43,793 nucleotides of DNA, taken from positions 1 to 43,793 of the forward strand of contig CAZOHR010000001.1 of assembly GCA_964579045.1 (NCBI GenBank). The letters are read 5' to 3'. The stretch is from an uncultured Bacteroidales bacterium. GTDB taxonomy: Bacteria; Bacteroidota; Bacteroidia; Bacteroidales; ML635J-15. Position 1 is the stretch's first letter, and each line of letters begins with the position of its first letter. Of the stretch, positions 1,118 to 20,400 are shown piece after piece. Both the position numbers and the translations under genes were made by a program. The notes under the pieces are model-generated. The model was not told the DNA's origin, ran no database searches, and worked only from the letters and a program-made list of their open reading frames with translations.

Positions 1118-1828
1118 TCATAGACTTACTTCGTAGAATTTAGATATCCCATCAACATATTTTGAATTCCTGGTCATGCGAAAAGGAAGCGTGTTTATTA
1201 CTGAAGAAGCACTATCATTATATAGTTCATTATATTTTATTTCAACAACAATCTCCGGGTCAACAAATGAGTCGTTTAAACGGTTATAGACTTCTCCTAA
1301 TTTAAAGTATTCTATTTTTGAGTCTATTGTAAGTCTAAAATTACCGCTTAAGTCCCTAAAGTATTCTCTGTGATATCTGTTCATCAGCTTTATTTCAAGA
1401 CCAGCAATTTCGTCAAAAACTTCAGGTGTGATTTCAGAGTGGCGAAAAATATTTCTAAAGAATTGGGTTGAAATATTCTCTGTAATTTCGAAATCGGGAA
1501 GTAGAAACGACATTTTTGTTCCACGGTATCCAGATTTTATTTTGATTTCAAAAACAGCACCACAAACAGTTCCAGTTTTCTCGCCATACCAGCGTATTCT
1601 GTATTTTTTTCTATCAGAATCTCCTCCAATGTTGTCGAAGAATGAATCCAATTCAGGAGTATCAAAATAGATATTATTTACAAAACGAGGATTAAAAATA
1701 CAGCGAAAAAATGCCTCAGATGAAAGAACAATATTCCTTATTTGTTGATATGACAAGGCAGAGGGTTTGAATTTTCTTTCATACCTATAGTTTTCGAGTT
1801 TTGTGTATTTAATTTCTTCGTTCTCCAT
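1118..1828 (-). CDS. VTC-domain protein (CYTH-like triphosphate-tunnel fold, polyphosphate-polymerase-like)
   Basis: 236 aa with no signal peptide. N-terminal YRYERKF (CYTH ExK-type strand). Alternating charged beta-strand segments (KYRIRWYGE, VFEIKIK, VVEIKY). Its start codon overlaps the stop of the upstream DUF4956 gene (TAATG). The CotH/DUF4956/VTC gene context fits this family. Confidence 0.65.
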   Translation of the reverse strand: MENEEIKYTKLENYRYERKFKPSALSYQQIRNIVLSSEAFFRCIFNPRFVNNIYFDTPELDSFFDNIGGDSDRKKYRIRWYGEKTGTVCGAVFEIKIKSGYRGTKMSFLLPDFEITENISTQFFRNIFRHSEITPEVFDEIAGLEIKLMNRYHREYFRDLSGNFRLTIDSKIEYFKLGEVYNRLNDSFVDPEIVVEIKYNELYNDSASSVINTLPFRMTRNSKYVDGISKFYEVSL

Positions 1829-2499
1829 TATTGAATATCCACAAAAGAAACAGAAGCATTTTCAAGTTTAAGTAGATCGTTTTTACACTCAGTTAGAATT
1901 CCAATATTTTTAACTCTTACCCTAAATGCAAGGTCAAGATTAGTTTTATTCTGATCAAAACGTCTGAGAGTTGGTCTGCTAAACTTTGAATTTACTATCG
2001 AAATAATATTTTCCATATCTCCATCTTTAGGATTTTGTAAATTTACAATCAGGTTATATGAGTTAAGTTTGTTCATTGGTTTTATAAAATATCTTACCCA
2101 AATAACAGATAGTAGCACAAGGAATGCAATAATTGTAACTACTGGCTGATTGGCACCCATTCCCAAGCCAGTTGCTATTGCTAGGAAAAGATATGAAAGT
2201 TCTTCGGGCTCTTTAATTGCAGCACGATAGCGAACAATCGACAAGGCGCCTACTAGACCTAAAGAAAGAGCAACAGAACTTCCTACCAAAGTTATAATGA
2301 GCATTGTGGTTAATGAAACCATAATGAAATTGTATGAAAACTGGCTTTTGTTTGAAAGACTGTTTGCACAGCGACGATATGTTAACTCAAGTAATATTGA
2401 CAAAACTATCGTCATTGCAGCATTTATCAAAAAGAGTTTAATATCAATCTCCTGCTGCTCAAAATTGAAGTACTGTAAGATCTTTTCGTAATTATTCAT
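1828..2499 (-). CDS. DUF4956-family multi-pass inner-membrane protein
   Basis: 223 aa. About four hydrophobic segments (LFLINAAMTIVLSILL, FIMVSLTTMLIITLVGSSVALSLGLVGAL, LSYLFLAIATGLGMG, VVTIIAFLVLLSVIWV). Contains the LSIVRYRAAIKEPEE motif I associate with DUF4956. Soluble C-terminal ~80 aa. Confidence 0.6.
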   Translation of the reverse strand: MNNYEKILQYFNFEQQEIDIKLFLINAAMTIVLSILLELTYRRCANSLSNKSQFSYNFIMVSLTTMLIITLVGSSVALSLGLVGALSIVRYRAAIKEPEELSYLFLAIATGLGMGANQPVVTIIAFLVLLSVIWVRYFIKPMNKLNSYNLIVNLQNPKDGDMENIISIVNSKFSRPTLRRFDQNKTNLDLAFRVRVKNIGILTECKNDLLKLENASVSFVDIQ

Positions 2500-2532
2500 A
2501 GTTTAAAGTATTATTTTGTAAAAATATTGAAA

Positions 2533-5529
2533 TTATTCGTAAAACATTGCAAACAATCTTGGTTTCTTTCCTTGGTAAATGACACCATTTAATTTTAGAG
2601 ATGAACCTTTTTCAATTAGGGACGATACCCCAACGTTAGATAACTTACAATTATTAGCGCTAATAAATGCTGGACCGAATTCAGGTTTCTTTTGCATTAT
2701 CACAAAGCCATAAACTGCATTATTTATTGAAACATTATCCAATTCGGCTGATGAGAGATCTTTGCTTGATATTCCTATGTTAACATTTTCGATATTCACA
2801 GTTGAGATTCTTGCTTTTGAATTTTCTCCAATGCTAATACCTTTATCCACACATCCAGAGATATCACAACTGATAATTTCCACATTACTGGTTGAGAAAT
2901 CAATAGCATCATTTCCAGCATTTATAAACTTACAATTTTTAACAATGCCGGTACAAAAGTCTGAGTCATGAGAATCACCAAACGTGTTTTTAATAATACA
3001 GTCGTGAATATAAAAATCGCATCTAATGGTATTAATCATATCTTCACTATAGTTATCCGAGAAAATTGAATTGCTGATTTCGACATCGGATTCATAAAAT
3101 ACTACAGCACCAGTAAGTATCCAATCATTATAATTGATAGTGTTTAGATTGCTGAATTCTGTGTATTTAATTACAGATTTATTACTTGCTTGTAGGATAG
3201 TAAATCCCATAGCAGATTTGTCGGAAGAGGATATTTTTATCGGATTTTCTTTTGTGCCATTTAGCAATACTCCTGAGTTACTAATAAAGGCAGACCCATT
3301 TACCAAATCAATTTCTGTTCCTGGATTAATAACCACTGTATATCCTTTTGGAATATAAATATGCTCTTTGAATTTTAATTTCCCTGTAAATACAATTTGT
3401 TTATTTTCTTGGTTGGTGTACTTGGTTAAATCCATTGAGTTTGATGCAATATCTGTTCTTGGATTATATTTTGTTGGGGCTGGCCATTTACTGATTGGCA
3501 CCATAAAAACAGAGTCTTTTAGTGCTAGTTTAAAATATAGAAATTCACAATCTGTTAAATCAGTGTTTGTACTTAACAGCTTTTCAAGAGCTTTGTCAGG
3601 ATTGTTGTTTTGAATTTCTATATTTAACTCATGTGTCAACTTTTCTTTTGTGCCAAAGCCTTGAATAATTATTGCATCGTTAAGGAATATTTTAAGTAAA
3701 AATTCCTTTTCATTTTGTTTAAAGCAGTTAATATATTTATCAGCAACTATGTCGGTTCTGTAAATTCTTTTTGAGTCCATTGGCATATTGGCCAAATTCT
3801 TTATTTTTTGCTGATACTCGCTGTTTGAAAGTGAATCACAAAATGCCGGCAATAAGCTAGTTATTCTTGTAGTAACCCAATCAAACTGTTCTATATTCAT
3901 ATTGTAGTTGGAAAACTCTTTTTTTAATAATTGGTCATTTAGAGAATATGAATTTATGAATTCTTTTCTTGTGTCAGAAAAATGTTTCTCGCTCGTAAAA
4001 ACACGAAGATATTTTAAGTAAGAATTTGCAAAACTAGTATCAGAAATAAGGTAGTATGTTGATGCTTTTAATTTGGAACAGTCGAAGTCGTCTGGCATAA
4101 ATGAAATTGGAAAGTCGTTGTGATAAACAGATTCGCCAGCAAACATATCAAATCCTATTGGTTCGAGTCTTGATAAAACAGGGTTATAATAATATCGGAT
4201 ATTATGCCATTCAAGCGCATGAAATGCATTTCTCGAGTTTAATAGAGCATAAAATTTTGCCGTTTTGTCAACATCAAAAATTTCTGATGCTGGTGCGGAC
4301 ATGTTTCTAAAGCATTCGAGAAGGTTTTGCGCAACCAAAAAAGTGTTAAATTGTGCACTGTCACTCAATGTTTTATCTTTCCCAAAAGGCTCAATAACAC
4401 TTGATTCAAATGAAAATTCGCTAGCCATTTTCAATCTCATAAAATCCCACATTCCAGCTTCAGAAAATTTAATTACCAATCCTTCTCTTCTTTTATTGCT
4501 TTCAATTAATTCTTTCTGAAAATGCTCTTCGTAGGCGTATAAACCATAGGACTTCCCATTGATATATACTGGTACAAACCCATATCTTGATGTAAGTAAA
4601 TCTTCTTTTAGAAATTCTTTATGCAATAACCACTCATTTAAGAATGCTCTAGTCTTTGGCGTGTGAATTGAAAAAACCGACATTCCATTCCAACTACCTT
4701 CTTTTAATTTAATTCTGTACGACCATTTGTCTCCACTTAGATGATCAAGCCAATCTCCTTTTAATCTCATCTCAGCTTCAATCATTTTTCCATCAATGTA
4801 TATTAATGCTTTTACATAGCTGTCGTCTTCGGTTATTAAAACTCCTTTTTTTAATGCTTCATTACGTTTCGCTTCTAGTTTCTCGAATTCTGTCTGTTGG
4901 ATATAAATTAATAGAGGTTCAATTTCTTTGAATTCAGGGTATTTCTTTTCTTTTTTTATTTCTATTTTAAAATCGTCGATATAGGTTTCTTGAAATGCTG
5001 AATTAAAAACATAAAAAGCCAAACTATCATTAAAACTTGCTTCAGTAAATACTTCTATTTCAATTTGTTTCCAATCGTCATCAGGATCACCAATGTTTAT
5101 ATTTGATATATAGTAGAAGTTTTTATCGGCAACACCTTGCAAAACAAGATATGCATCAGACCCTTTTTTAATCGATAAGCTAACCTTTAGATATTTTGAA
5201 CCTTTTACTCCCCCAAGTTTTATTAAACTTTGATATTGCTGCCAAGAATTTATTTTTAAACTATTATTACCAGAATTTGAGATGCTATCAATTATTTTAC
5301 TCTCTAAACAATTAACATTCAGACCTTTAATGTTTGTATATATTTGCCCAGTGTCTGAGGAGTGCTCAAAATCGCAAATGATAATCTCATCAATATATAC
5401 CTGCTTTTTGGGAAGCATGTTATTGTATATCGACATAATCCCCAAAAGTAGCAACAGCAAGATAATGATTGAAATAAAATCTTTAATTTGCTTTTGTTTT
5501 ATTGATTTTCCGATATTCTTGATTGCCAT
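2533..5529 (-). CDS. membrane-anchored CotH-family atypical protein kinase with a C-terminal right-handed beta-helix region
   Basis: 998 aa. N-terminal signal anchor (FISIIILLLLLLGIMSIY). CotH core at roughly nt 3880-4850 (MRLKGDWLDHLSGDKWSYRIKLK..., FLNEWLLHKEFLKEDLLTSRYGFVPVYINGKSYGLYAYEEHF). The C-terminal ~300 aa are parallel beta-helix repeats (NAGNDAIDFSTSNVEIISCDISGCVDKGISIGENSKARIS...). Confidence 0.75.
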   Translation of the reverse strand: MAIKNIGKSIKQKQIKDFISIIILLLLLLGIMSIYNNMLPKKQVYIDEIIICDFEHSSDTGQIYTNIKGLNVNCLESKIIDSISNSGNNSLKINSWQQYQSLIKLGGVKGSKYLKVSLSIKKGSDAYLVLQGVADKNFYYISNINIGDPDDDWKQIEIEVFTEASFNDSLAFYVFNSAFQETYIDDFKIEIKKEKKYPEFKEIEPLLIYIQQTEFEKLEAKRNEALKKGVLITEDDSYVKALIYIDGKMIEAEMRLKGDWLDHLSGDKWSYRIKLKEGSWNGMSVFSIHTPKTRAFLNEWLLHKEFLKEDLLTSRYGFVPVYINGKSYGLYAYEEHFQKELIESNKRREGLVIKFSEAGMWDFMRLKMASEFSFESSVIEPFGKDKTLSDSAQFNTFLVAQNLLECFRNMSAPASEIFDVDKTAKFYALLNSRNAFHALEWHNIRYYYNPVLSRLEPIGFDMFAGESVYHNDFPISFMPDDFDCSKLKASTYYLISDTSFANSYLKYLRVFTSEKHFSDTRKEFINSYSLNDQLLKKEFSNYNMNIEQFDWVTTRITSLLPAFCDSLSNSEYQQKIKNLANMPMDSKRIYRTDIVADKYINCFKQNEKEFLLKIFLNDAIIIQGFGTKEKLTHELNIEIQNNNPDKALEKLLSTNTDLTDCEFLYFKLALKDSVFMVPISKWPAPTKYNPRTDIASNSMDLTKYTNQENKQIVFTGKLKFKEHIYIPKGYTVVINPGTEIDLVNGSAFISNSGVLLNGTKENPIKISSSDKSAMGFTILQASNKSVIKYTEFSNLNTINYNDWILTGAVVFYESDVEISNSIFSDNYSEDMINTIRCDFYIHDCIIKNTFGDSHDSDFCTGIVKNCKFINAGNDAIDFSTSNVEIISCDISGCVDKGISIGENSKARISTVNIENVNIGISSKDLSSAELDNVSINNAVYGFVIMQKKPEFGPAFISANNCKLSNVGVSSLIEKGSSLKLNGVIYQGKKPRLFAMFYE

Positions 5530-5627
5530 GTTTTTATGGGAGAAGTAACAGGATTAAATGCAATATAGTTATTGTAAATAGCTGCTTTTTAATGATTGAA
5601 AATTTGATGCAATAATTTTTGTGGTAA

Positions 5628-6788
5628 TTACAAAGGTCTGGCATAAGCCACAACATCTTCTGCATTTATTGATGCACCACATAAAATTACCAATCGCTCG
5701 ATAACATTTCTAAATTCGCGAATGTTTCCAGTCCAGTTGATTTTTGATAGTTCATCAATCGCTGCAGGGTTTATTTTCTTTAAAGGAACACCCTGTTCAT
5801 TGCACGACATTTCGATAAAATAGTCAGCTAGTAATGGGATATCCTCTTTTCTGCTATTAAGAGAAGGTACATGAATGAGGATTACACTAAGTCTGTGGTA
5901 TAAATCTTCTCTGAAGTTAGTTTTTTCAATCTCAGAGCTTAAGTTTTTATTTGTGGCAGCAATAATTCGCACATTAACATCTATATCTTTGTCGCTTCCA
6001 ACTCTCGAAATTTTATTTTCCTGTAAGGCTCTCAAAACCTTTGCTTGTGCCGATAAGCTCATGTCGCCAATTTCGTCAAGAAAAATAGTACCACCATCTG
6101 CTTGCTCAAATTTTCCCTTACGCTGTTTAATCGCAGAGGTAAAAGCTCCTTTTTCGTGACCAAATAGTTCACTTTCAATAAGTTCGGAAGGAATAGCAGC
6201 ACAATTTACTTCAATAAAAGGAGCTTGTGCCCTATTGCTTTTTTCATGCAGCCATCTTGCAACAACCTCCTTGCCAGTACCATTTTCACCAGTTATTAAA
6301 ACTCTTGCATCAGTTGGAGCAACTCTGTCAATCATATCTTTAACCTTTTTGATTGCAGCCGATTCGCCAATCATCTGATACTTCATACTAACCTTCTTTT
6401 TTAAGGTTTTTGTTTCCATTATCAGATTCGATTTGTCTAGAGCATTGCGCAGGGTAATCATTATTCTGTTTAGGTCGAGAGGCTTTGGAATAAAATCGAA
6501 AGCTCCTTTTTTTATTGCCTCCACAGCCGTTTCGATATTGCCATGACCCGAAATCATTACCACTGGAACTTCGGGAGCCGATTCGTGCAGACTTTCTAGC
6601 ACTTCGATTCCATCCATCTGTGGCATTTTGATGTCACAAAATATTACATCATAAGTGTTTTCTGCTGCAAGCTGAATTCCGGTTTTTCCGTCTTCTGCCA
6701 AATCAACATTATGACTTTCAAAAGTAAGAATATCTTTCAGCGTGTTTCTAATGCTACGCTCGTCATCAATAATAAGTATTTTAGCCAT
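5628..6788 (-). CDS. sigma-54-dependent response regulator (REC + AAA+), lacking a C-terminal HTH domain
   Basis: The real start is MAKILIIDDERS (ATG at complement 6786-6788), not the ORF-track start at 6878. REC acceptor FCDIKMPQMDG. Walker A GENGTGKE, GAFTSA loop, Walker B FLDEIG. The protein ends ~25 aa after the AAA+ lid (..RNVIERLVILCGASINAEDVVAYARPL). Confidence 0.9.
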   Translation of the reverse strand: MAKILIIDDERSIRNTLKDILTFESHNVDLAEDGKTGIQLAAENTYDVIFCDIKMPQMDGIEVLESLHESAPEVPVVMISGHGNIETAVEAIKKGAFDFIPKPLDLNRIMITLRNALDKSNLIMETKTLKKKVSMKYQMIGESAAIKKVKDMIDRVAPTDARVLITGENGTGKEVVARWLHEKSNRAQAPFIEVNCAAIPSELIESELFGHEKGAFTSAIKQRKGKFEQADGGTIFLDEIGDMSLSAQAKVLRALQENKISRVGSDKDIDVNVRIIAATNKNLSSEIEKTNFREDLYHRLSVILIHVPSLNSRKEDIPLLADYFIEMSCNEQGVPLKKINPAAIDELSKINWTGNIREFRNVIERLVILCGASINAEDVVAYARPL

Positions 6789-6808
6789 GGCTTTGTTTTT
6801 TCTTTTTG

Positions 6809-6816
6809 CAAAGATA
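6809..6816 (-). promoter_or_regulatory. putative -7 box (TATCTTTG) for the response-regulator gene
   Basis: Exact TAnnTTTG match on the minus strand, 21 nt upstream of the ATG at 6788. Confidence 0.35.
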
Positions 6817-6837
6817 AAAAAAGAACAGGATAATTGC

Positions 6838-6894
6838 AAATCACAATCCGCCGTGGCGGACAAATCGCAAAATAGCACGATTCCCTTGTGATTT
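6838..6894 (-). terminator. possible structured 3' element / weak intrinsic terminator after the MORN-repeat gene
   Basis: On the minus strand, the GC hairpin TCCGCC-AC-GGCGGA (plus-strand 6847-6860) is followed by TTGTGATTTGC. The 9-nt arms AAATCACAA (6838-6846) and TTGTGATTT (6886-6894) are also complementary. It lies between the stop at 6898 and the next promoter box. Confidence 0.3.
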
Positions 6895-6897
6895 TAT

Positions 6898-7719
6898 TTA
6901 TTTTTCCGATTTACTTTCCTTAACCAATATTTCTGGAAATGTTTCTTCTTTTATCATTTTTCCACTTTCGTCGAAGTACTGCCATAGTCCAGTTTTTTGA
7001 TTCTCAGAAAATTGACCTTTAATTGCTAAAATGTTTGGGTTATGGTATTTCTCAAAACTTCCTTGTTTTACGTTCGCTTTGAATTGTATTTTCTCTTTTA
7101 TATTTCCGTCTTCAAAATATTCTGTTTCAAATCCTTGCTTCTGGTTTTCTACAAAATCGGTCTCTCTTAATATTTTGCCCGATTTATAATACTCTTTCCA
7201 TGTGCTATTTTTTTTCGATAATACATAAGTGATTTCTCCCTGCAATTCACCTGTTTCATAGTAATACAGCCAAGTGCCGGTTTTTTTATGTTTTTCGTAA
7301 AACTGTACTTCACGCAGGTTTCCGTTTTCAAAAAAGTATTCCCATTTTCCAGTTTTCTGACCAATTATATAATTCTCAACAAATTTTTTATTCCCATTTT
7401 CAAAATATCCACAAAATTCACCATCTAGTTTGCCTTCTTTGTATTGTGCCGATGTTTTTTTCTTGCCGTCAGAATAATACTTTACCCATTTCCCATCTTG
7501 CAAATTATCTTTGTAGGTTCCTTTTTCTTTTATTTCGCCAGTTTCATAATATGTAGTGTGTTTACCATTAAGTCTGTTATTCTTATATTTGGTTACAGAC
7601 ATTTTTTGACCATTTTTGTAAGTGCTGGTAATCGTCCACACAGAGTCTTTTTGATTTCCAGCAAAGACAAAATAAGAACACACCAACATGACTAAAACTG
7701 AAACTATTGAAGCTTTCAT
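6898..7719 (-). CDS. secreted MORN-repeat-variant (YwqK-like) protein
   Basis: 273 aa. Signal peptide MKASIVSVLVMLVCSYFVFAG. About ten copies of the G-x-W-x-YY/F-x-x-G-x-(K/L) repeat (GKWVKYYSDGKK, GKWEYFFENGNL, GTWLYYYETGEL, GLWQYFDESGKM). Confidence 0.7.
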   Translation of the reverse strand: MKASIVSVLVMLVCSYFVFAGNQKDSVWTITSTYKNGQKMSVTKYKNNRLNGKHTTYYETGEIKEKGTYKDNLQDGKWVKYYSDGKKKTSAQYKEGKLDGEFCGYFENGNKKFVENYIIGQKTGKWEYFFENGNLREVQFYEKHKKTGTWLYYYETGELQGEITYVLSKKNSTWKEYYKSGKILRETDFVENQKQGFETEYFEDGNIKEKIQFKANVKQGSFEKYHNPNILAIKGQFSENQKTGLWQYFDESGKMIKEETFPEILVKESKSEK

Positions 7720-7950: not shown

Positions 7951-10764
7951 TTATTTTTCAGTTACAACAATCTTTTTCACCTCATTAATTGTTGCAGATT
8001 CTAACTTTATAAAGTAATTACCTGCCGAAACCTTTTGGCCAGAAGTTGTTTTTAAATTCCATGATATAGTGTGTTTTCCGGAATTTAATTTGCCGTTTTC
8101 GAGAACACTAATTGTTTTACCCTGCGAATCCAAAACTGTAAGTTTGATTTTTCCAGTTTCATTTAGATAGAATTCAATATTTGTAAAGTCAAAACAAGGA
8201 TTAGGATTTATTCTCAGTAAATCGGTAGAATTGTTTTCGATAATATTCACTGTGTTTTCTTCAACGTTAATATAAAGGTCCTTGGTTTCGGTGCCATTAG
8301 GAGTAGTTAATTTAACTGTGTAGAATCCTGGAAATGTATAGGTAAACTGTGGATCTTGAGCATTGCTGTCATCAGAACCATCGTCGTCAAAATCCCAACT
8401 CCACGAAGCTGATGCTGGATATGACAAGTCGGTGAACGAAATGCTTAATGGAGCAACACCAGTAGTAATATTTGCAGAAAAATCAGTGTAAGCCGTCATA
8501 CTAGAGTTAGCAGTAAAAACTTGTTCGTCGGACCAGTCGCTCCATTTTTGGTTGTGATCGCGGTATGAAACTCGCCATGCATACTCGTTACCGTCAATAA
8601 GAGGAGCATTAACTTGTAAACGTCGTAAATCAATGCCTTCGTTTAGGTCCGTTGGAATGTAATCAGGTGCTCCACTATCGCCATATATATTAACCCAATC
8701 TTGTCTTTTTTCCAAAACTAGATTGCTATAGTCACCAGGATTATCTGTAATTTGAAATTTAACACTCATCAGACTATCAACTCCAACATATTCGGAAGCA
8801 ACTAAAAGAGGTAGTAACCCAGTTTCTCCAGAAGGAGACATTGCAACAGGCTTTTCTGGTTTAGGTTGATCTAGCTTTCTGTAATAATAGTCAATAAGAA
8901 CGTTGTCCATGCCCAAATCTGTATTTCCGAATGCGTAGGTAAACATCTCAAAACTGCGATTTTCCAAATCTATATCCACAATATTATATAGGTAATAATC
9001 AAGGGCAATCATAATCTCTTCATAGTCTTGCTGATTTGGATACATTCCCCATCTGTCGAGTGCAGAGCCAGCTCCACCTGTTAGCATTACAAAAAAATCG
9101 CCATTTGAATTTGCAACTTTAGATTCTACTGTACCTCGTTCATAGTTATGAGAATGACCATAAGCAAGAAGTTGAACTTTGTCATAATCCTGCAATACTG
9201 GAATAACATCATTTTGGATATAATCGGTATTTCCATCAGGCCAAATTTCGCTGTGACCAGGCTGGTGTGTAAAACAGAAAGACATATCAACATCTGGATT
9301 GGCATCAGCTTGCGAAAGTTTGTTTTCGAGCCAAGATGTTTGAACACTATTGGAATAAGTTCCATTTCCGTTAATAAATACAAACTGAGTATTCAAATAA
9401 TAAAAATTGTAAAACTTCTCGCTCAATGGCCAAGAGTAATCACTAACATCTTCATATTTCATATAATCGTAGAAGTTTGCCGATTCATTTTCGTGATTGC
9501 CAATGATTACCATAAACGGAAGGTTTGCTGATAAAGAGGCGTAAGGTCTGAAATATTCATTTTCATATTGACTGATTTCACTGCCACTGGAAACAATATC
9601 TCCAACATGAACAACCATGTTTATATAATCCTCAATAGGAGATCCATACATTTCGACAGCTTTGTTTTTTGCAGCAATGGCTATTTCTGTAGTTTTTGCT
9701 ATATCTGTTCTACTGTCACCAACTAGAATAAACCTTAGATGCTGATTACTTTCTACTGTTTCAGATGGAGTATTAAAGCTATAAATCTCAGATTCCTCTG
9801 ATTCACTAATACATTTATAATAGTATTTGGTGCCAGGAGTTAAGCCACTAAGTTTTGCAGTTTGCCAATTTTTACCATTAATGTCTTCATTTGACCCAGT
9901 TTGTGATAATCCAAGCGCAGTGGTTGTTCCATATTCAACAGTAGTTGATCCTGTAAGATTTGAATGCCAACTTATATAAATACTAGTAGGTGTTGGAGTT
10001 TGTAAATATGGTAAAATTCCAGTTAAAATCGGATCTATAGTATGTCCGTAACCTCCAAGCGAATTAACCTCTGTCTGATTTAAGGGATGATTAAAAATTG
10101 CTGTTAGCGCAATGTCAATAGGATTGTCTTCGCCGTCATTATCTGCAAAAAAATGAACAAGATTATCACCAGATGATGGATACAAACTGTAACTGCCGTC
10201 AACTGGTAATGGTCCGCCATTTAGAATTAAAGATCCGTCGAGATAAACACGGTAATAGTTTCCTAAATCAACCGAAACTACCATACGATACCATTCGTTT
10301 GGATTTACGACATAGGTACTGTAACCTGGACCATCGGTCGAACGACCAACTTGACCTGCTGTGTTTATAAAAAGCTCCCCATCATTTGAGTTTGAGGCAT
10401 TCGCCTGATAGAAACAATGCCAAACCGAAGTGCTAGATACTTTAAAGTCGTAAACCAAACTATATTCATTTACTTCTGTACCACCACCGTTACCGGCTAA
10501 ATCATGGTAACATGTGTAGTAACTTCCAGTTCCAATTGTAACTGCGTTATCCCCAGCTTCTGGGCCAGCAATTGCCGTAGCTGAGCCAGTAAGTACCAAG
10601 CTATTTCCTGTAGTTGCTGCGGTTAAGTCGGCACCATTATTAAATTCCCATAACCCAGCAATTCCTGGATGTTCGGCAGGGATTATCTGTGGTGCCTGTG
10701 AAAAAAGAGCTACACTTTGAATCATTAGAAAAACTAAAATCGAAATAGAATAAATGAGTTTCAT
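7951..10764 (-). CDS. T9SS-secreted multidomain metallophosphoesterase (LamG-like, purple-acid-phosphatase-like Fn3, metallophos, PKD, type-A sorting domain)
   Basis: 937 aa with a signal peptide. Phosphoesterase motifs LVGDSRTD, VHVGDIVSSG, IIGNHE, FCFTHQP and YGHSHNYERG. PKD unit ISFTDLS...WSWDFDDDGSDD...FTYTFPGFYTVKLT. C-terminal LRINPNPCFDFTNIEFYL...GNYFIKLES...KKIVV is a type-A T9SS CTD. Confidence 0.8.
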   Translation of the reverse strand: MKLIYSISILVFLMIQSVALFSQAPQIIPAEHPGIAGLWEFNNGADLTAATTGNSLVLTGSATAIAGPEAGDNAVTIGTGSYYTCYHDLAGNGGGTEVNEYSLVYDFKVSSTSVWHCFYQANASNSNDGELFINTAGQVGRSTDGPGYSTYVVNPNEWYRMVVSVDLGNYYRVYLDGSLILNGGPLPVDGSYSLYPSSGDNLVHFFADNDGEDNPIDIALTAIFNHPLNQTEVNSLGGYGHTIDPILTGILPYLQTPTPTSIYISWHSNLTGSTTVEYGTTTALGLSQTGSNEDINGKNWQTAKLSGLTPGTKYYYKCISESEESEIYSFNTPSETVESNQHLRFILVGDSRTDIAKTTEIAIAAKNKAVEMYGSPIEDYINMVVHVGDIVSSGSEISQYENEYFRPYASLSANLPFMVIIGNHENESANFYDYMKYEDVSDYSWPLSEKFYNFYYLNTQFVFINGNGTYSNSVQTSWLENKLSQADANPDVDMSFCFTHQPGHSEIWPDGNTDYIQNDVIPVLQDYDKVQLLAYGHSHNYERGTVESKVANSNGDFFVMLTGGAGSALDRWGMYPNQQDYEEIMIALDYYLYNIVDIDLENRSFEMFTYAFGNTDLGMDNVLIDYYYRKLDQPKPEKPVAMSPSGETGLLPLLVASEYVGVDSLMSVKFQITDNPGDYSNLVLEKRQDWVNIYGDSGAPDYIPTDLNEGIDLRRLQVNAPLIDGNEYAWRVSYRDHNQKWSDWSDEQVFTANSSMTAYTDFSANITTGVAPLSISFTDLSYPASASWSWDFDDDGSDDSNAQDPQFTYTFPGFYTVKLTTPNGTETKDLYINVEENTVNIIENNSTDLLRINPNPCFDFTNIEFYLNETGKIKLTVLDSQGKTISVLENGKLNSGKHTISWNLKTTSGQKVSAGNYFIKLESATINEVKKIVVTEK

Positions 10765-13375: not shown

Positions 13376-14404
13376 ATGTCGGATTCGAGTCAGGAAAATA
13401 TTTTTAATCTGTCTAACTTGTTAGGATTTATTTCAAAGAATAAAATCGCCCTGATTATAATATGTATTGTTGCTTTTATCGTTTCTGTAATTGTTACAAT
13501 GTCGATTCCTCCCAAGTTTAAATCGACAGTAATTCTATTTCCAACATCATCAGGATCCATCTCGCAGGCATTGATTACAGAAAGTCAGCAGAAGAAGGAG
13601 ATTTTAAATTTTGGAGAAGAAGAAGATGTTGAGCAATTGATGCAGATTTTACTTTCATCAGAAATCAGAAATCGAGTAATCGAAAAGTATGATTTGTTTA
13701 AGCACTATAATATTGATAGAGATTCCAAATACGCCAACAGCCAACTTTATAGAAAGTATGAAGCAAATGTAGATATTTCGCGTACAGAATATATGTCGAT
13801 CCGAATAGATGTGTTGGACGAAGATCCAGAAATCGCAGCACTTATTGCCAATGATATTGCAGCGCTGGTTGATAGCATGTATTCTAAAATCCAGAAAGAA
13901 CGTGCAACAAAAGCTTTTAATATTGTTGAGAGAGAATTTATCTCACAAAAGGAAAAGATTAAAAATATTGAAGATTCTCTCGATGCCTTAGGAAAACTTG
14001 GAGTGATTGATGTTAAATCGCAAACAGAAATGTATAGCGAACAGCATGCAATTGCAATTGCTTCAGGTAATGAAAGAGCAAAGCTAGAAATAGAAAAAAA
14101 GCTAGATATTCTTGCAACATACGGAAGTTCTCATTCAATTTTAAAAGAGCAGATGTTTGAAGAAGTAAAACAGCTTGCTGTTATTGAAGCGAAATATCGA
14201 GAAGCAAAAATTGATCTTGAACAGGATTTGCCAAATACATACATTGTTAGTCCTGGAGAGGTGGCAGACAGAAAAACCTATCCAATATATTGGCTCACAA
14301 CAAGCATTAGTGTAATTTCGACGCTATTGTTTTCAATTGTACTGCTTGTCTTATTTGATAAGTACTTAAAAAAAAAAGTCTGGCCTTTGTCGAAGAAGAC
14401 CTGA
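13376..14404 (+). CDS. Wzz-like polysaccharide co-polymerase (chain-length determinant family, no kinase domain), paralog 1
   Basis: 342 aa. N-terminal TM followed by PPKFKSTVILFP. A long coiled-coil-like middle region. C-terminal TM (YWLTTSISVISTLLFSIVLLVLF). This is the bitopic PCP topology. Confidence 0.65.
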   Translation: MSDSSQENIFNLSNLLGFISKNKIALIIICIVAFIVSVIVTMSIPPKFKSTVILFPTSSGSISQALITESQQKKEILNFGEEEDVEQLMQILLSSEIRNRVIEKYDLFKHYNIDRDSKYANSQLYRKYEANVDISRTEYMSIRIDVLDEDPEIAALIANDIAALVDSMYSKIQKERATKAFNIVEREFISQKEKIKNIEDSLDALGKLGVIDVKSQTEMYSEQHAIAIASGNERAKLEIEKKLDILATYGSSHSILKEQMFEEVKQLAVIEAKYREAKIDLEQDLPNTYIVSPGEVADRKTYPIYWLTTSISVISTLLFSIVLLVLFDKYLKKKVWPLSKKT

Positions 14405-14445
14405 GAGAATTGGTAAATAAATTTGAAATACCTAAATACGAAGTT

Positions 14446-15372
14446 ATGGAAAATTATTTTAAAACAAAGAGTATATTTGTACTGATAATGAAGTGGAAAT
14501 GGCATCTTCTAGTTCTAGCTGTTGTCGCTGGTGGTCTTGGAGCACTGTTCTCGTCTTCATGGTTTATTAAACCTAAGTTCAAATCTACTGCAGTAGTTTA
14601 TCCAGCTAATATTGCTCCTTTATCAGAAGAGTCTGAAAGTGAGCAGATGCTCGAGTTGCTTCAGTCGGATGATATTAAATTTGAAGTTATTGACGCTTTT
14701 GATTTATATGAACATTATGGAGTTGACCCAGATGGAAGTAACCATGTATCTAAAATAATTAAGACCTATGATGGTAATGTTAACATTACAAAAACACCAA
14801 ACGAAGCAATAGTTATAACTGCTTTTGATATAGATCCTCAAATGGCTTCTGACATTATTGATTCAATTATTGCATACTATAATTTAAAGGTGCTAGATTT
14901 AAACATTTCTAAATCAAAGGAGATTGTCACCATTTATAAGAGAGAATACAATAAAAAAATAAAAGAAGTAGATAGTCTTGCAAACATTTTAAAGACTTTC
15001 AGAACCCAATATGGCATGCTAGATTTAACGGCTCAGGTTGAAAAATACACAGAAGCCATCTCTAATGGAAGAACTCTAGACGAAGCTCACGAGGTACTTG
15101 GCAATTGGGAAGAATACGGTGCAGAATACAGTAAGAACGACTCATTGTTCTATTACGCCCTATCTGATATGCATACAGCTAAAACAATTTACGAAGGTTC
15201 TCTAAGAGATTCGGAAAAGATGCAAACATATGCTCATGTGGTTTCAAAACCTTATCCTGCTGATAAAAAATCATTTCCTGTTCGTTGGGTTATTGTTCTA
15301 TTCTCTGTTTTAGGAGGATTCTTGGCTGGAACAATTATAATTTCAATAATTGAGGGTATCAAAAAACAATAA
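14446..15372 (+). CDS. Wzz-like polysaccharide co-polymerase, paralog 2
   Basis: The ORF-track start at 14410 is a TTG. The first ATG gives MENYFKTKS (14446), and ATG 14488 is an alternative. Architecture matches paralog 1 (TM, KPKFKSTAVVYPAN, C-terminal TM VRWVIVLFSVLGGFLAGTIIISI). Its stop directly abuts the next start (TAAATG). Confidence 0.6.
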   Translation: MENYFKTKSIFVLIMKWKWHLLVLAVVAGGLGALFSSSWFIKPKFKSTAVVYPANIAPLSEESESEQMLELLQSDDIKFEVIDAFDLYEHYGVDPDGSNHVSKIIKTYDGNVNITKTPNEAIVITAFDIDPQMASDIIDSIIAYYNLKVLDLNISKSKEIVTIYKREYNKKIKEVDSLANILKTFRTQYGMLDLTAQVEKYTEAISNGRTLDEAHEVLGNWEEYGAEYSKNDSLFYYALSDMHTAKTIYEGSLRDSEKMQTYAHVVSKPYPADKKSFPVRWVIVLFSVLGGFLAGTIIISIIEGIKKQ

Positions 15373-16842
15373 ATGGAAATTACCGAAGCTAAATATAAAC
15401 TAATAGCTTTCTATGCACTTGCTTTTCTCTTTATTGTCACCAATTCATATGTGATTATAAAAGAAGAGAGTTTTTTGTTTAACCTTATTCCTTTAGCGAT
15501 TATTGTTTTTTTTGCTTTGTTCTTCGCATTGGACAAAATGCTTCTATTCTCCGTTTTCCTTGTTCCGTTTTCCGTTCCATTAAGAATATTCTTTCCGAAT
15601 CTGGATTTTAATATTGATTTACCAACAGAGCCAATCTTCGTCGCAATTCTGATAATTTTTCTTTTAAAACAACTCAGAGATCGTGATTTTGACAAAGCAG
15701 TAGCTCGCCATCCTATATCAATTTCAATATACATTTATCTTGCATGGAAGCTTGTTACCGTTTTTACTAGTACAATGCCACTTGTGTCAGTTAAGTATTT
15801 TTTTGCTTCTCTTTGGTTTATCATTCCCTTCTTCTTCCTAATGTCGCAGGTTTTTAGGAAAGAAAAAAACATAATTCGATTTTACTGGATGTACATTATT
15901 CCGTTCTGTGGGGTTATTACATATACATTGATTAAACATGCTGCTCGAGGTTTTAGTCAAAACTCTGCAAATTATGTAATGAATCCCTTTTATAATGACC
16001 ATACTTCATATGGTGCTCTTCTCGCAATGTTTATTCCTGTAATTGTCGGATTTTTGTTCAATAAAGAATTAAAAACTAAATTAAGAGTTATTGCTGGTAT
16101 TGTGTTGTCATATTTTCTTGTAGCAATTGTTATGTCTTATACCAGAGCAGCATGGGTCAGTCTCATCGGTGCTTTAGGCGTTTATATGATTCTCCGATTT
16201 AAAATTAATTTTAAGGTTGTGATTGCTGGGATTGTGATTGTCGTAGGCTTATTCTTGGTGTTTCAAGATCAAATTTTTTTCTCTCTAGAACGAAATAAAC
16301 AGGATTCATCTACCGACTTTAAAGAACACCTGCAGTCAATTAGCAATGTTGCTACTGATGCATCAAATATGGAACGATTAAATAGATGGAATTGCGCAGT
16401 GAGAATGTTCAAAGAAAAACCAGTTTTTGGTTGGGGGCCGGGGACTTATCAGTTTAAGTACGCTCCATTTCAGTTTTCATACGAGAAAACAATTATCAGC
16501 ACTAATGCAGGAGATATGGGGAACGCTCACAGTGAATATTTAGGTTCTCTTTCCGAGTCTGGATTGTTTGGGATGCTCTCGTTTATTGCAATGTCATTGA
16601 TTATCTTTATTACTGCAGCAAAGAACTATGTAAGGGCGAATTCATATTCGCTTAAGATTATTACAGCTTCAACAATTGCTGGTCTTACAACATATTTATT
16701 GCATGGATTTTTAAATAACTTTCTTGATATAGATAAAGCAGCTGTTCCATTTTGGGGTTTTGCTGCAATTATTGTAGCTGTTGATGTTTATCTTATTAAG
16801 AATAATAAAGAGAAAGAAATCGAAGTAGATAAAATAGATTAA
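15373..16842 (+). CDS. O-antigen ligase / polymerase family (Wzy_C-type) integral membrane protein
   Basis: 489 aa with about 10-12 TM segments. Contains SYTRAAWVSLIGALGVY and a periplasmic loop with GNAHSEYLGSLSESGLFGML (H-x3-L-x5-E-x-G-x2-G signature of the WaaL/Wzy_C family). Confidence 0.75.
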   Translation: MEITEAKYKLIAFYALAFLFIVTNSYVIIKEESFLFNLIPLAIIVFFALFFALDKMLLFSVFLVPFSVPLRIFFPNLDFNIDLPTEPIFVAILIIFLLKQLRDRDFDKAVARHPISISIYIYLAWKLVTVFTSTMPLVSVKYFFASLWFIIPFFFLMSQVFRKEKNIIRFYWMYIIPFCGVITYTLIKHAARGFSQNSANYVMNPFYNDHTSYGALLAMFIPVIVGFLFNKELKTKLRVIAGIVLSYFLVAIVMSYTRAAWVSLIGALGVYMILRFKINFKVVIAGIVIVVGLFLVFQDQIFFSLERNKQDSSTDFKEHLQSISNVATDASNMERLNRWNCAVRMFKEKPVFGWGPGTYQFKYAPFQFSYEKTIISTNAGDMGNAHSEYLGSLSESGLFGMLSFIAMSLIIFITAAKNYVRANSYSLKIITASTIAGLTTYLLHGFLNNFLDIDKAAVPFWGFAAIIVAVDVYLIKNNKEKEIEVDKID

Positions 16843-16896: not shown

Positions 16897-17391
16897 ATGA
16901 ACAACAAGAAGTTTTTATTAATATTATCATCAATTCTAATTATTTCAATAGCCAATTCCTGCACAATGAAAAAGAAAATCGGAACTGATATTACGAAAAT
17001 AGTATATTCTTTTGGAGATTCCTCTGTTCCACCAATGTATCACAGAAGTTATGTTATCACAGCAACTCCTGAGTCAATTAGTATTGTTGTTGATTCATAT
17101 GGAACTATTCTTGCAGATACTAGTTATACTTTCGACTCGGAAAGATTCGTAGCATTAACAAGTAAAATCAAAGAATTTAAGATTGAAAATGGGAAAGATG
17201 CTGAAGATAGCAAGGGCTGTACAGGTGGAACTACCAAGTCTGTTCAGGTATTCAAGGGTGAGGAAGAGATTATTAATGGCACAAATTACTATTGTGGTGG
17301 TGAAATATTTGGCAATCTAAAAGGCGATGCGGACTCTTTTGCCGACGAAATAAAAACGTTTATCCCAGACTTGGATAAATTGCGCAAATAA
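16897..17391 (+). CDS. small lipoprotein of unknown function
   Basis: 164 aa. Signal peptide with a lipobox-like SIANSC. No family recognised. Confidence 0.5.
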   Translation: MNNKKFLLILSSILIISIANSCTMKKKIGTDITKIVYSFGDSSVPPMYHRSYVITATPESISIVVDSYGTILADTSYTFDSERFVALTSKIKEFKIENGKDAEDSKGCTGGTTKSVQVFKGEEEIINGTNYYCGGEIFGNLKGDADSFADEIKTFIPDLDKLRK

Positions 17392-17497
17392 AAATATACA
17401 GAACCTTAATATTAAAAGCAGCCAAAATCAAAAAATTAGCGTCATAAAAATATTCTGTGCGAATTAATTGAGTAACTTTATGCACTTAAAATATTTT

Positions 17498-20400
17498 ATG
17501 AAAAATTACATATTTTTATTTCTATTTGTTTTATGTTTTGGTTTCTTTGCTAATGCCCAAATCAGCACTTTCCCTTGGAACGAAGATTTTGAATCTGCAG
17601 GTCTGCCATCGGGCTGGACTCAGGAGTATGTTAACGCGAGTGTAAATTGGCAAACTTATGCTGGGGGTACTTATGGAATGCCATCTTCTTCATATTCAGG
17701 CACAAAAAATGCGTTTTTCTCATCCGATAATTACGATGACAATCAAACGATTCTAATTAGTCCCCAACTTGATTTATCTTCTCTCACAAATCCGATTCTG
17801 AGTTTTTATCATGCCCAGATACCTTTTGACACAGATCAAGACGAACTTAGAATTTATTATAAAACATCTGCAAGCGGACCTTGGATTTTATTGCAGTCAT
17901 ACACTACCGCTGTGATGAGTTGGACTTTTCGTCAGATTATTTTGCCCGAAACGTCGAATGATTTTTATATTGGATTCAGTGCGAAATCGGGATATGGCCT
18001 AGGTGTTTGTGTCGACCTTGTAGAAGTGCAAAATGTTGAACCTTGCCTTGATCCAACAGCTATTTCTATATTGCAAGCTTCAGATTCGGGTGCAGTAATT
18101 GATTGGCTTGCTGGAAGTTCAGAATCAAACTGGCAGGTAGAGTATGGAGTTCAAGGCTTTACTCAGGGTGGAGGGACACTTGTCAATACAACCGAGTCCA
18201 CACACACATTCACATCTCTTTCTGCTAACGAAGATTATGATTTCTATGTGAGAGCATATTGTAATCCTTTGTATAGCGATTGGGTAGGCCCTTTCAGCTT
18301 CTCAACAATTTGTGCAATTGCTGATATCTTTCCATATAATGAGGGATTTGAAAACACAACAGCTCCTGTGCCATGCTGGAGTATGGAATATGCAAACCCT
18401 ACACCCAATAGCGGCAACTTAATGACCCACAGTAACTCCTTTGCTTTTGAAGGAGCTAGATCATTCAAATTTTGTAGCTATTACATTGGAGCACCTTATA
18501 ATCAATATCTTATTAGCCGTCAATTTGATTTTCCTCAAGAGATGCAAGTCAGTTTCAGATATAGAAAAAACACAAGTGGTACTGAAATTTTCTGTGTTGG
18601 AACTTCATCAACAACGGATGCAGTATCTTCTTTTACATGGGGCGAAAATGTCACAAATGCAAATTCAACTTGGAAATACTTCAGTTTAGAAATTCCAGCG
18701 AACACAAAATATATTGCAATTCAGTACAAATCTAATTTTCAAAATTCATTGTTTGTAGATGATCTGCAAATTAGAAATGCTACTAATTGTTATGAGCCTG
18801 TTGATGTTACTATTGGCACAGTAGGCTCTACTACGGCAGTAGTTGGATGGACTGCTGTAAATGGAGAAACAACATGGAAGCTAGAATACGGTACCGCTGG
18901 TTTTACACAAGGTTCTGGTACAATAATCAATACAGGCTTAAATCCATACACAATCACAGGTCTTAATTCCGAGACACAATACGATGTTTATGTAAAAGCT
19001 GATTGTGGTACTCCCGAAAGTATCTTTACAGAAAAAAAGAGCTTCACAACTTTGCCAGCTTGTTTGCCAGTGACGGGTTTTCAAGTTACTTCAAATACAA
19101 ATAGTAGTGTTAGTTTAAGCTGGAATACCAATGCCGCGGTTTTTTACGAAATAGAATACGGTGTAGATGGATTTATACAAGGTTCTGGAACTACAGTTTC
19201 GTCAATTGTTACAGGAACAAAAACGATTACTGGTCTTCTCGAAAACACCGCCTACGATTTTTATGTCCGCGCTTATTGCGGGGCTGCAAATGGTTTTTCG
19301 GATTGGAGCACAGCAGTAAGTTGCATCACATATCCTTGTGCTACAGGTTGTTTTTACACATTTACTCTTAACGATTATTGGGGCGATGGTTGGGGAAATG
19401 TTAGTCTTGGAATCTATCAGGATGGAGAATTAACAAATACACTTAAAATCGAATCAGGATATACTTTGGAAAGTCAAATCTACATATGTGATATTTCAAA
19501 TGTCGAAATCGTTTTAAATCAAGGAAGCTTTGCCGACGAATGCTCTTTCTACGTTTACACACCTTATGATGTATTTGTTTATTCTAGTGATTTTGAAACT
19601 TTAGGGTCTGTTCCTGACCAAACGGTACTAAATAGTTTTACTGGTGATTGTAGTGAACCAGATTGTTATCCGCCATCGAATACTTCCTATTCACAACTTT
19701 TGTATAGCTCATGCATGATAAGTTGGCAGGCTGGAAATGGTGAAACTTCATGGAATGTAGAATATGGTGCTGCTGGATTTTTACCAGGTTCGGGGACATT
19801 AATTTCTGGCGTTACTGAAACCACATATTTACTAAACAGCTTAACTCCTTCAATGGCTTATGATGTCTATATTTATGCAAATTGTGGCGTGTCTGGATTA
19901 AGCAATCCTGTTGGGCCCGTTTCTTTTACCACATCAGCAGCACCTATTGCATTAGATATTTGTGGGCTTAGTCTTAATATTCCAGATAATTCCTTCTCAA
20001 ATGCAAATTTTGAAGTTTCTGGTTTGGTACCATCAAGTCCTTTTACACATTTCAATCTAGAGTCAGTTTCATTTATAATTCAACATCCTTATGATGCGGA
20101 TTTAGAGTTGTTTCTTGAATCTCCCGAAGGCGTAACAGTTACTCTTATTCAAGATAATGGTGGAATTGGTGATAATTTTGGAGATGTTGGTGGTTCTTGT
20201 ACTTATAAAACTATATTGTCGCTTAATCCTGTTAATGGAAGTATTGCTTCTGGCACAGCTCCATTTAATGGAAATTACTCAGCAATCGGCGATTTGAACA
20301 ACTTCAATACAGGAGCAGATTTAAACGGGCTTTGGAAGCTCAAAATTGTTGATGATAATAATTTATATACAGGTAAGTTACAATACTTTAATCTCAGTTT

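Follow-up and report, generated by a model that had tools for sequence, protein, structure and literature searches.

Why should a homologue of the eukaryotic polyphosphate (polyP) polymerase be encoded, in a Bacteroidales genome, between a membrane protein and a phosphatase and together with an exported CotH-family enzyme? The genes in question, for a CotH-family protein, a DUF4956 membrane protein and a VTC-domain protein, lie on a stretch of 43,793 nucleotides from an uncultured Bacteroidales bacterium (positions 1 to 43,793 of contig CAZOHR010000001.1, assembly GCA_964579045.1), hereafter the window. An original prediction made from the sequence alone had read them as one system, in which polyP made in the cytoplasm passes through the membrane and feeds a kinase outside. 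Our data demonstrate that the three genes form a real module that occurs in many bacterial phyla, and this module probably modifies a cell-surface polysaccharide.

A three-gene module found across bacterial phyla

The three open reading frames (ORFs) stand exactly where they had been predicted, packed on the minus strand, with 33 nt between the CotH and DUF4956 genes and a 1-nt overlap between the DUF4956 stop and the VTC start (TAATG, in ...CAATAATGGAG). Pfam assigns the VTC product to PF09359 (E=8.5e-24, 84.8 bits against a cut-off of 23), the DUF4956 product to PF16316 (E=1.3e-14) and, weakly, the CotH product to PF08757 (27.3 bits against a cut-off of 23.8) plus Beta_helix PF13229. The family calls of the original prediction are thus borne out, the CotH fold also by an AlphaFold2 (AF2) model compared with Foldseek and by a profile alignment to the Bacillus cereus CotH structure 5jd9; none of the three proteins matched an NCBIfam model.

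By scanning one genome per GTDB species with a DUF4956 profile, we found relatives of this protein in at least 580 species genomes and retrieved 80 loci; a search of the full library gave 5,759 DUF4956 clusters at 50% identity. All ORFs of the loci were scored with hidden Markov models (HMMs) from our own alignments, canonical CotH proteins missed by the clade-specific HMM being added later, and co-occurrence was counted in the 49 loci having at least 4.5 kb on each side. DUF4956, VTC and CotH lie on one strand within 5 kb in 41 of these 49. The genes come in three orders, CotH-DUF4956-VTC as in the window (27 loci), DUF4956-CotH-VTC (11) and DUF4956-VTC-CotH (5), and the loci belong to about ten phyla (Bacteroidota, Chlorobiota, Calditrichota, Planctomycetota, Verrucomicrobiota, Omnitrophota, Spirochaetales, Nitrospinaceae, Ignavibacteriales and Saccharibacteria). 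Of 56 pairs in which DUF4956 and VTC are neighbours, 48 overlap or stand no more than 20 nt apart. That the genes stay linked through rearrangement, in so many phyla, argues strongly for a joint function, and the co-conservation, which had been anticipated, is far beyond chance. No match to DUF4956 or VTC came from a tblastn search of 72,556 plasmids.

The window itself is a Bacteroidota contig with gliding and type IX secretion system (T9SS) proteins (GldH, SprB, Por_Secre_tail), and its nearest relatives are metagenome-assembled genomes of Bacteroidales and Marinilabiliales. Carriers of the operon include Maribellus, Roseimarinus, Mariniphaga and Draconibacterium (loci L008, L027, L016 and L039). 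Identity to the nearest relatives falls from DUF4956 (about 80-90%) through VTC (60-78%) to CotH (about 50%), an order that fits a constrained membrane core with a fast-evolving exposed enzyme. A sigma-70 promoter and terminator scan, whose models do not cover Bacteroidota promoters, found what is expected of shuffled sequence.

Contrary to what the original prediction had supposed, the trio was not new to the literature. In 2020 Whitfield et al. described an accessory set, made up of cotH, DUF4956, DUF4832 and a gene for a 'poly-phosphate polymerase', that directly adjoins pelDEADAFG in streptococci, clostridia and bifidobacteria, and suggested that CotH regulates Pel through protein phosphorylation (PMC7112168); the cotH/polymerase/DUF4956 trio is also recognisable in NELoc-2 of Clostridium perfringens (PMC2879425). 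In 2025 the Streptococcus intermedius genes SIR_1592-1594 were deleted one by one and their phenotypes described, and the authors considered a possible role in phosphate metabolism and did not find the synteny outside Pel loci (PMC12345266). Neither study proposed polyP export or polyP as a donor (PMC7112168, PMC12345266), and no biochemical mechanism has been published for the triad. In our data no Pel or DUF4832 family was found among the scanned ORFs of the window or the recurrent neighbour clusters of the 80 loci, which were screened through cluster representatives and could hide rare cases. This shows that the triad occurs outside Pel loci and is self-contained rather than Pel-specific. 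What is new here is therefore the Pel-independent module, its enzyme with a carbohydrate-binding module (CBM), a His-bearing CotH domain and a beta-helix, and its phosphoesterase partner (Table 1).

Table 1. Positions of the module, its domains and the neighbouring genes in the window; aa, amino acids; TM, transmembrane.
Feature	Position	Strand	Basis or remark
CotH-family enzyme gene	2533-5529	minus	998 aa ORF
CotH enzyme: N-terminal Lys-rich tail and single TM helix, aa 8-38	5416-5508	minus	hydropathy 2.5-3.1, AF2 helix
CotH enzyme: CBM-like beta-sandwich, aa 48-192	4954-5388	minus	Foldseek
CotH enzyme: CotH kinase-like domain, aa 205-580	3790-4917	minus	Foldseek and profile alignment to 5jd9
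CotH domain: invariant His263 codon	4741-4743	minus	
CotH domain: His437 codon	4219-4221	minus	
CotH domain: Asp461 codon	4147-4149	minus	
CotH enzyme: right-handed beta-helix, aa 710-990	2560-3402	minus	Pfam Beta_helix and Foldseek
DUF4956 membrane protein gene	1828-2499	minus	223 aa ORF
DUF4956: TM region	2083-2442	minus	AF2, five helices
DUF4956: invariant RxRAAIKEPEE loop	2200-2232	minus	conservation among homologues
DUF4956: cytoplasmic ACT-like domain	1837-2064	minus	AF2 and Foldseek
VTC polyP-polymerase homologue gene	1118-1828	minus	236 aa ORF
Signal-peptide metallophosphoesterase, 286 aa	246-1106	plus	convergent with VTC, 11 nt apart
Sigma-54-type (NtrC-type) response regulator	5628-6878	minus	Pfam REC and AAA+, recurrent neighbour
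Purple-acid-phosphatase-like T9SS cargo protein	7951-10764		Pfam; not a recurrent neighbour
Two Wzz-like chain-length determinants and Wzy_C (O-antigen ligase/polymerase-like)	13376-16842	plus	Pfam

The three proteins and their placement at the membrane

The VTC protein is a VTC domain alone. It has no SPX domain and, by Pfam and hydropathy, no C-terminal Vtc1-like (DUF202) TM domain; no hydrophobic segment, TM helix or export signal was detected, in agreement with the cytoplasmic location proposed for it. Mutagenesis and cryo-EM of Vtc4 define a catalytic set of K200, R264, R266, K281, Y359, R361, E426 (a Mn2+ ligand), S457 and K458; in place of K458 the inactive Vtc2 and Vtc3 carry Ile or Leu (bioRxiv 10.1101/2023.01.27.525886). 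A profile built from 24 VTC sequences of many phyla was aligned to the Vtc4 and Vtc2 structures, both of which it matches across the domain (E down to 1.5e-9). Residues K19, R77, R79, K96, Y152, R154, E196, S222 and K223 of the window protein fall on all nine Vtc4 catalytic positions and are invariant in the 24 sequences, as is K198, which falls on Vtc4 K428. K223 is the equivalent of K458, the Lys that marks active polymerases, the motif being SIF in Vtc2 versus SKY or SKF in the bacterial proteins and Vtc4. The alignment segments holding E196 and S222-K223 have low stand-alone significance, and their motifs VLEVK and SKF match exactly. With the full catalytic set and no SPX domain, TM helix or signal, the protein appears to be a minimal polyP polymerase of the cytoplasm, competent for catalysis.

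The AF2 model of DUF4956 (pLDDT 80) has five TM helices (aa 20-44, 51-72, 75-94, 98-115 and 119-139), where about four had been predicted, and a C-terminal beta-alpha-beta-beta-alpha-beta domain (aa 146-221). For the latter Foldseek returned ACT domains and, lower down, the C-terminal domain of MgtC (2lqj), all with weak E-values. Neither sequence nor fold comparison found a PDB counterpart of the TM domain; a weak match of DUF4956 to yeast Ist2 was disregarded as a hydrophobic-segment match. All of the 40 homologues compared match PF16316, and 17 of them match the Pfam MgtC family below its gathering score (best E=0.01). The streptococcal homologue was likewise described as an MgtC-like TM domain followed by an ACT domain (PMC12345266). 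Conservation peaks in TM3, the cytoplasmic loop and TM4 (…SSVALSLGLVGALSIVRxRAAIKEPEEL…GLGxGA).

About 12 of the best DUF4956 hits of the full-library search are longer proteins of 444-502 aa. The six of these that we read in sequence (P0402, P0415, P0418, P0437, P0462 and P0469; loci L081, 6216-10076, and L082, 2711-6478) begin with a cleavable signal peptide, which is followed by a ConA-like lectin/glucanase domain (mostly PF06439), a Pro/Glu-rich linker and DUF4956. Their reading as VTC-DUF4956 fusions was rejected, the N-terminal part being signal peptide and lectin/glucanase, and they carry no evidence of a VTC-DUF4956 complex. They do settle the topology: a signal peptide and lectin domain ahead of DUF4956 place its N-terminus outside the cytoplasm, and five helices then put the ACT-like domain inside, beside VTC. 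The association of VTC with DUF4956 is shown by translational coupling, synteny and topology, and the first two are supportive of a physical complex; transport would be a further step.

The AF2 model of the CotH protein (pLDDT 89, pTM 0.86) contains the domains listed in Table 1 and a small beta domain between the CotH fold and the beta-helix. The protein has one hydrophobic helix after its Lys-rich N-terminus, no further TM segment and no Cys lipobox, and 46 of 54 full-length relatives begin with a hydrophobic anchor or a lipoprotein-type signal, which indicates that the enzyme is exported. The helix is thus a predicted signal anchor, with the N-terminus in the cytoplasm and the catalytic domains outside, where the original prediction had placed them. 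The best Foldseek match of the protein is B. cereus CotH (5jd9, E=4e-9, TM-score 0.64). Single-sequence and full-length-profile searches of PDB sequences found no match; the alignment to 5jd9 required a profile of the kinase domain only, built from diverse loci, and runs end to end over 340 positions (E=4.5e-10, about 15% identity).

The domains on either side of the CotH fold resemble proteins that handle polysaccharides. The CBM-like domain matches CBM22, CBM16, CBM4 and a porphyran-binding CBM in Foldseek, and the beta-helix, which has numerous invariant Asp and Lys columns, matches GH87 glucanase, alginate lyase, the AlgG epimerase, phage depolymerases and polygalacturonases. A CBM-like domain joined to a beta-helix of the polysaccharide-enzyme type makes a glycan, rather than a protein, the likely substrate, and the modelled enzyme is likely built to hold a polysaccharide.

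In Bacillus subtilis CotH, D228 is catalytic (D228Q is inactive) and D251 is a metal ligand (PMC7821199). The Asp of the 'PWD' motif of B. cereus CotH corresponds to D251 and aligns with D461 of the window protein, a column that holds Asp or Glu in 59 of 59 CotH-like ORFs of the clade. The Asp of 'NFDGF', 23 residues upstream, corresponds to D228 and aligns, with a register uncertain by one residue, with His437; this column holds His in 58 of the 59, and no conserved acidic residue is near. The clade also keeps H263, S270, R294, E334, N443 (the Asn of the HN motif), R445, E456 and D/E461 near-invariant, and this polar set with its metal-binding Asp is the signature of a live but altered CotH active site. 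Of the kinase proposed in the original prediction, then, the fold and the metal-binding Asp stand, whereas the canonical catalytic Asp and the protein-substrate setting give way to His437 and glycan-type domains.

His437 is a trait of this clade. The partner of the lectin-DUF4956 variant in L081 and L082 is a PKD-CotH protein with 'DNWD…NNYYLYHDP…IPWD', which has Asp in the His437 column, and most CotH proteins beside DUF4956 and VTC in Verrucomicrobiota and Saccharibacteria have Asp in this segment, the multiple alignment being loose there. The idea that the His is universal among triad CotH proteins, for example as a phospho-His nucleophile for polyP, was rejected because these other triads are of the Asp type. 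Several genomes have two to four paralogous CotH/beta-helix genes per contig, in tandem in Saprospiraceae (contigs of P0250/P0256/P0260, P0249/P0258 and P0246/P0261; also loci L042, L045 and L079); in L042 and L045 DUF4956 is followed by two CotH genes, with no VTC within 5 kb.

A phosphoesterase partner and the wider neighbourhood

When the 660 flanking ORFs of the loci were clustered into families, the family of the signal-peptide metallophosphoesterase that converges on VTC in the window proved to be the commonest neighbour. It occurs in 27 of the 80 loci, mostly with a signal peptide, and in 15 of them it is adjacent (<500 bp) or intra-operon. In the four intra-operon cases it sits in the CotH/DUF4956 interval (L028, L037), in the DUF4956/CotH interval (L025) or directly after VTC (L076). 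This phosphoesterase is a conserved fourth partner of the module. The window ORF scores 20.4 bits against Pfam Metallophos, just under the cut-off of 21.5, and its nearest solved relatives are dimetal phosphoesterases: the plant diphosphonucleotide phosphatase PPD1 (3zk4, E=4e-8), Lmo2642 and Rv0805. The family keeps the GD and GNH[DE] motifs (invariant G69-D70 and G99-N100-H101) and invariant H33, H166 and G214-D215; motif I is Gly-His where Asp-x-His is normal and motif V is Gly-Asp where Gly-His is normal, which points to an atypical metal site. The original prediction had named two phosphoesterases as a phosphate theme of the neighbourhood. The second, a T9SS cargo protein, is not a conserved neighbour, and neither it nor the MORN protein at 6898-7719 recurs among the clustered families.

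Envelope-glycan genes recur around the module: GT2 glycosyltransferases (21 loci), MBOAT and AlgX-like O-acylation pairs (8 loci), PMT_2 GT-C, Wzx, Wzy_C, Bac_transf, GT4 and a sugar-nucleotide epimerase. Fourteen loci encode DUF2079 proteins, GT-C-like, multi-TM and about 650-690 aa long, that end in a homologue of the CBM-like domain found in the CotH enzyme; judged by this shared domain, the DUF2079 protein and the CotH enzyme may bind the same glycan. Examples are L020 8114-10171, L021 3680-5629 and 11904-13970, L032 11426-13489 and L060 14300-16390. In the window the nearest polysaccharide-assembly machinery is the Wzz/Wzz/Wzy_C group about 8 kb from the module.

The response regulator next to the CotH gene belongs to a family found in 12 loci, which directly adjoins the module, in varying orientation, in several Bacteroidales loci. 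Translation of this regulator likely begins at Met31 (MAKILIIDD), the listed GTG probably lying 30 codons too early, and no DNA-binding helix-turn-helix was detected in it. The 5530-5627 gap upstream of the operon contains no sigma-54 promoter match and so gives no sign of a regulatory tie between the two. The best sigma-54 promoter-like match of the window, at 17100-17115 on the plus strand (TGGAACTATTCTTGCA, one mismatch), lies inside a 164-aa ORF (16897-17391), about 350 nt upstream of a T9SS gene for a 1373-aa fn3/P_proprotein protein (17468-21589). Elsewhere in the window, 36998-39382 on the minus strand encodes an unusual 794-aa protein in which two complete phosphoglycerate kinase (PGK) units follow each other head to tail (aa 1-397 and 399-794, 57% identity between the halves). 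The reading frame runs through the junction uninterrupted by a stop or frameshift, and the Pfam PGK score is 931 bits in two stretches.

Function of the module and comparison with known systems

What the module acts on can be stated with more confidence than how. The CBM and beta-helix matches, the CBM shared with DUF2079 proteins, the envelope-glycan neighbours, and the Gram-positive linkage to Pel with the altered Pel of deletion mutants all point to a glycan target, and we consider it likely that the genes act together on an envelope polysaccharide. A unifying model is a four-part envelope module that would take phosphate chemistry from the cytoplasm, through the inner membrane, to a polysaccharide on the cell surface. 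At the cytoplasmic face the soluble VTC protein, as its fully conserved catalytic residues suggest, would make polyP from NTP. It would work on the five-TM MgtC-like DUF4956, by which the polymer or a signal derived from it would be passed to the periplasmic side. There the anchored CotH enzyme would bind a polysaccharide through its CBM-like and beta-helix domains and phosphorylate or otherwise modify it, presumably with exported polyP instead of ATP as the donor and His437 in place of the canonical catalytic Asp. The secreted metallophosphoesterase, finally, may trim polyP or remove the phosphate mark. We propose this full chain, in which polyP is made, crosses by way of DUF4956 (or hands over its phosphoryl groups) and is used by CotH to modify a glycan, as our preferred but tentative model, conceivable but somewhat less probable than its being wrong at one step or another.

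Several observations weigh against it. The strongest single datum against a linear pathway comes from S. intermedius, although it concerns one phenotype in one organism: aggregation was unaffected by deletion of VTC but fell by more than 50% in sputum medium on deletion of either DUF4956 or CotH (PMC12345266). A strictly linear pathway, as originally proposed, fits this result poorly. In the same study Pel levels went up in the DUF4956 deletion and down in the CotH deletion (PMC12345266). Six of the 49 well-flanked loci have DUF4956 and VTC without CotH, and two have DUF4956 and CotH without VTC. The DUF4956 family gave no match to the Vtc1-type channel domain DUF202 in 40 members at E<=1; its invariant basic residues R90, R92, K96 and R136 sit at the cytoplasmic ends of the helices, and no conserved basic residue was seen within the bilayer by conservation and the AF2 model. 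On these two grounds the membrane conduit of the original prediction amounts to an analogy. Judging by the alignment, the CotH domain of this clade, having lost the catalytic Asp, could be something other than a phosphotransferase. In the literature searched we found no biochemistry of a bacterial VTC, DUF4956 or exported CotH protein, including any assay of a bacterial VTC-family member.

Part of this evidence is what one would expect if VTC and DUF4956 acted on the cytoplasmic side only, making or sensing polyP or a short triphosphate signal through which the MgtC-like/ACT protein tunes an exopolysaccharide synthase or phosphate homeostasis; the CotH/beta-helix protein would then be a separate, co-regulated glycan enzyme with a donor from elsewhere, such as a lipid-linked phosphate. 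Regulation of other membrane proteins is a known role of the MgtC family (cited in PMC12345266), and DUF4956 is MgtC-like, carries an ACT-type ligand-binding fold, has no pore-lining basic residues and occurs with VTC in the six loci that have no CotH. The opposite Pel shifts of the two deletions also look regulatory. We nevertheless regard purely cytoplasmic regulation as unlikely. Co-regulation alone hardly explains why an exported CotH stays linked across many phyla, in three gene orders and with two or more unrelated architectures of its own, some DUF4956 proteins carry an extracytoplasmic lectin-like domain of their own, so that the membrane protein itself reaches outside, and the polymerase-specific Lys of VTC is invariant.

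A different use of exported polyP would be as matrix: VTC and DUF4956 would secrete it as a polyanion or cation binder, cross-linking for instance the cationic Pel, with the phosphoesterase turning it over. The CotH-like domain of the clade would then be no kinase, serving as a binding or pseudokinase module or in other chemistry, and the beta-helix would be the true catalytic domain, a lyase, hydrolase or epimerase. The His that replaces the catalytic Asp in 58 of 59 clade members speaks for this reading, given that B. subtilis D228Q is inactive (PMC7821199), as do the beta-helix, rich in invariant Asp and Lys and similar to active polysaccharide lyases, hydrolases and epimerases, and the DUF4956-VTC cores found without CotH. 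The strictly kept polar residues of the CotH domain, however, form the pattern of an active site and not of a decayed pseudoenzyme, and other triads have canonical Asp-type CotH proteins without a beta-helix, which makes a matrix role for polyP quite unlikely. That VTC is some other triphosphate-tunnel enzyme (a tripolyphosphatase, NTPase or cyclase-like protein) and no polyP is involved is improbable: the TTM/CYTH superfamily is functionally diverse, the streptococcal VTC deletion is silent and assays are lacking in the literature searched, but the Pfam match is specific to VTC and the nine invariant Vtc4 residues include the Lys absent from Vtc2 and Vtc3.

To return to the export-and-transfer model, its boldest form, in which a bacterial VTC-type synthase and an MgtC-like protein export polyP as the phosphoryl donor with which CotH enzymes phosphorylate envelope polysaccharides, independently of ATP and in hundreds of species, with a His instead of the kinase's canonical catalytic Asp in the Bacteroidota-type clade, is doubtful as it stands. 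The overall interpretation offered by the original prediction survives in its families, topology, co-conservation and the phosphate theme of the converging phosphoesterase, and fails in its novelty, its four TM helices and its second phosphoesterase; its conduit stands as an analogy, and its central notion of exported polyP as phosphoryl donor is plausible.

Synthesis of polyP in bacteria is attributed to PPK1 and PPK2, VTC being treated as eukaryotic (e.g. PMC10657179). If active, a bacterial VTC tied to a membrane protein would be a third bacterial route to polyP and a candidate ancestor of the eukaryotic complex. Exported kinases have a donor problem, there being no ATP outside the cytoplasm, to which a polyP-fed CotH enzyme, if true, would be the first answer. 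The module is large and has ties to polysaccharides of the cell surface, among them Pel, a biofilm polymer of streptococcal pathogens, and it offers experimental handles in H437 and D461 of CotH, K223 of VTC and the RxRAAIKEPEE loop of DUF4956.

Among known systems, the same donor-supply problem is met by FAM20B and POMK, glycan kinases of the eukaryotic secretory pathway, and by the periplasmic phosphotransferase LpxT, all of which phosphorylate a glycan or lipid outside the cytosol. The secretory-pathway kinases use ATP imported into the compartment and LpxT uses undecaprenyl-PP; the likeness to our module is one of analogy, no homology being shown, and we know of no case of polyP-dependent glycan phosphorylation outside the cytoplasm. 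DUF4956 resembles, in its model, the MgtC/SapB/YhiD family, with five TM helices and a C-terminal ACT-like domain, but falls below the Pfam threshold, has the distinct SIVRxRAAIKEPEEL motif and has VTC as an obligate partner. Bacillus CotH (5jd9/5jda) shares its fold, metal-binding Asp and HN motif with the window enzyme, which differs in being exported, rather than working in the ATP-containing cytoplasm of the mother cell, and in its glycan-type accessory domains.

The yeast VTC complex (Vtc4/Vtc3/Vtc1) has a homologous catalytic tunnel domain with all catalytic residues, and in both systems the synthase is tied to a membrane partner, with a phosphatase across the membrane: yeast pairs VTC with luminal polyphosphatases (Ppn1/Ppn2, Ppn2 being a Zn-dependent metallophosphatase), the window with its metallophosphoesterase. 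In the window, by contrast, the catalytic domain is separate, soluble and free of SPX, and the membrane partner is a five-TM MgtC-like protein, not the three-TM Vtc1/DUF202. The Gram-positive pel accessory group has the same three families in one syntenic block, an exported CotH and a link to an extracellular polysaccharide. The window differs from it in having no pel genes, in a CotH protein fused to CBM-like and beta-helix domains instead of FN3, with His for Asp, and in a partner that is a secreted metallophosphoesterase and not a DUF4832 glycoside hydrolase. Its host is also diderm, and the outside compartment in which the CotH enzyme would work is therefore the periplasm or the cell surface, unlike that of the Gram-positive pel hosts.

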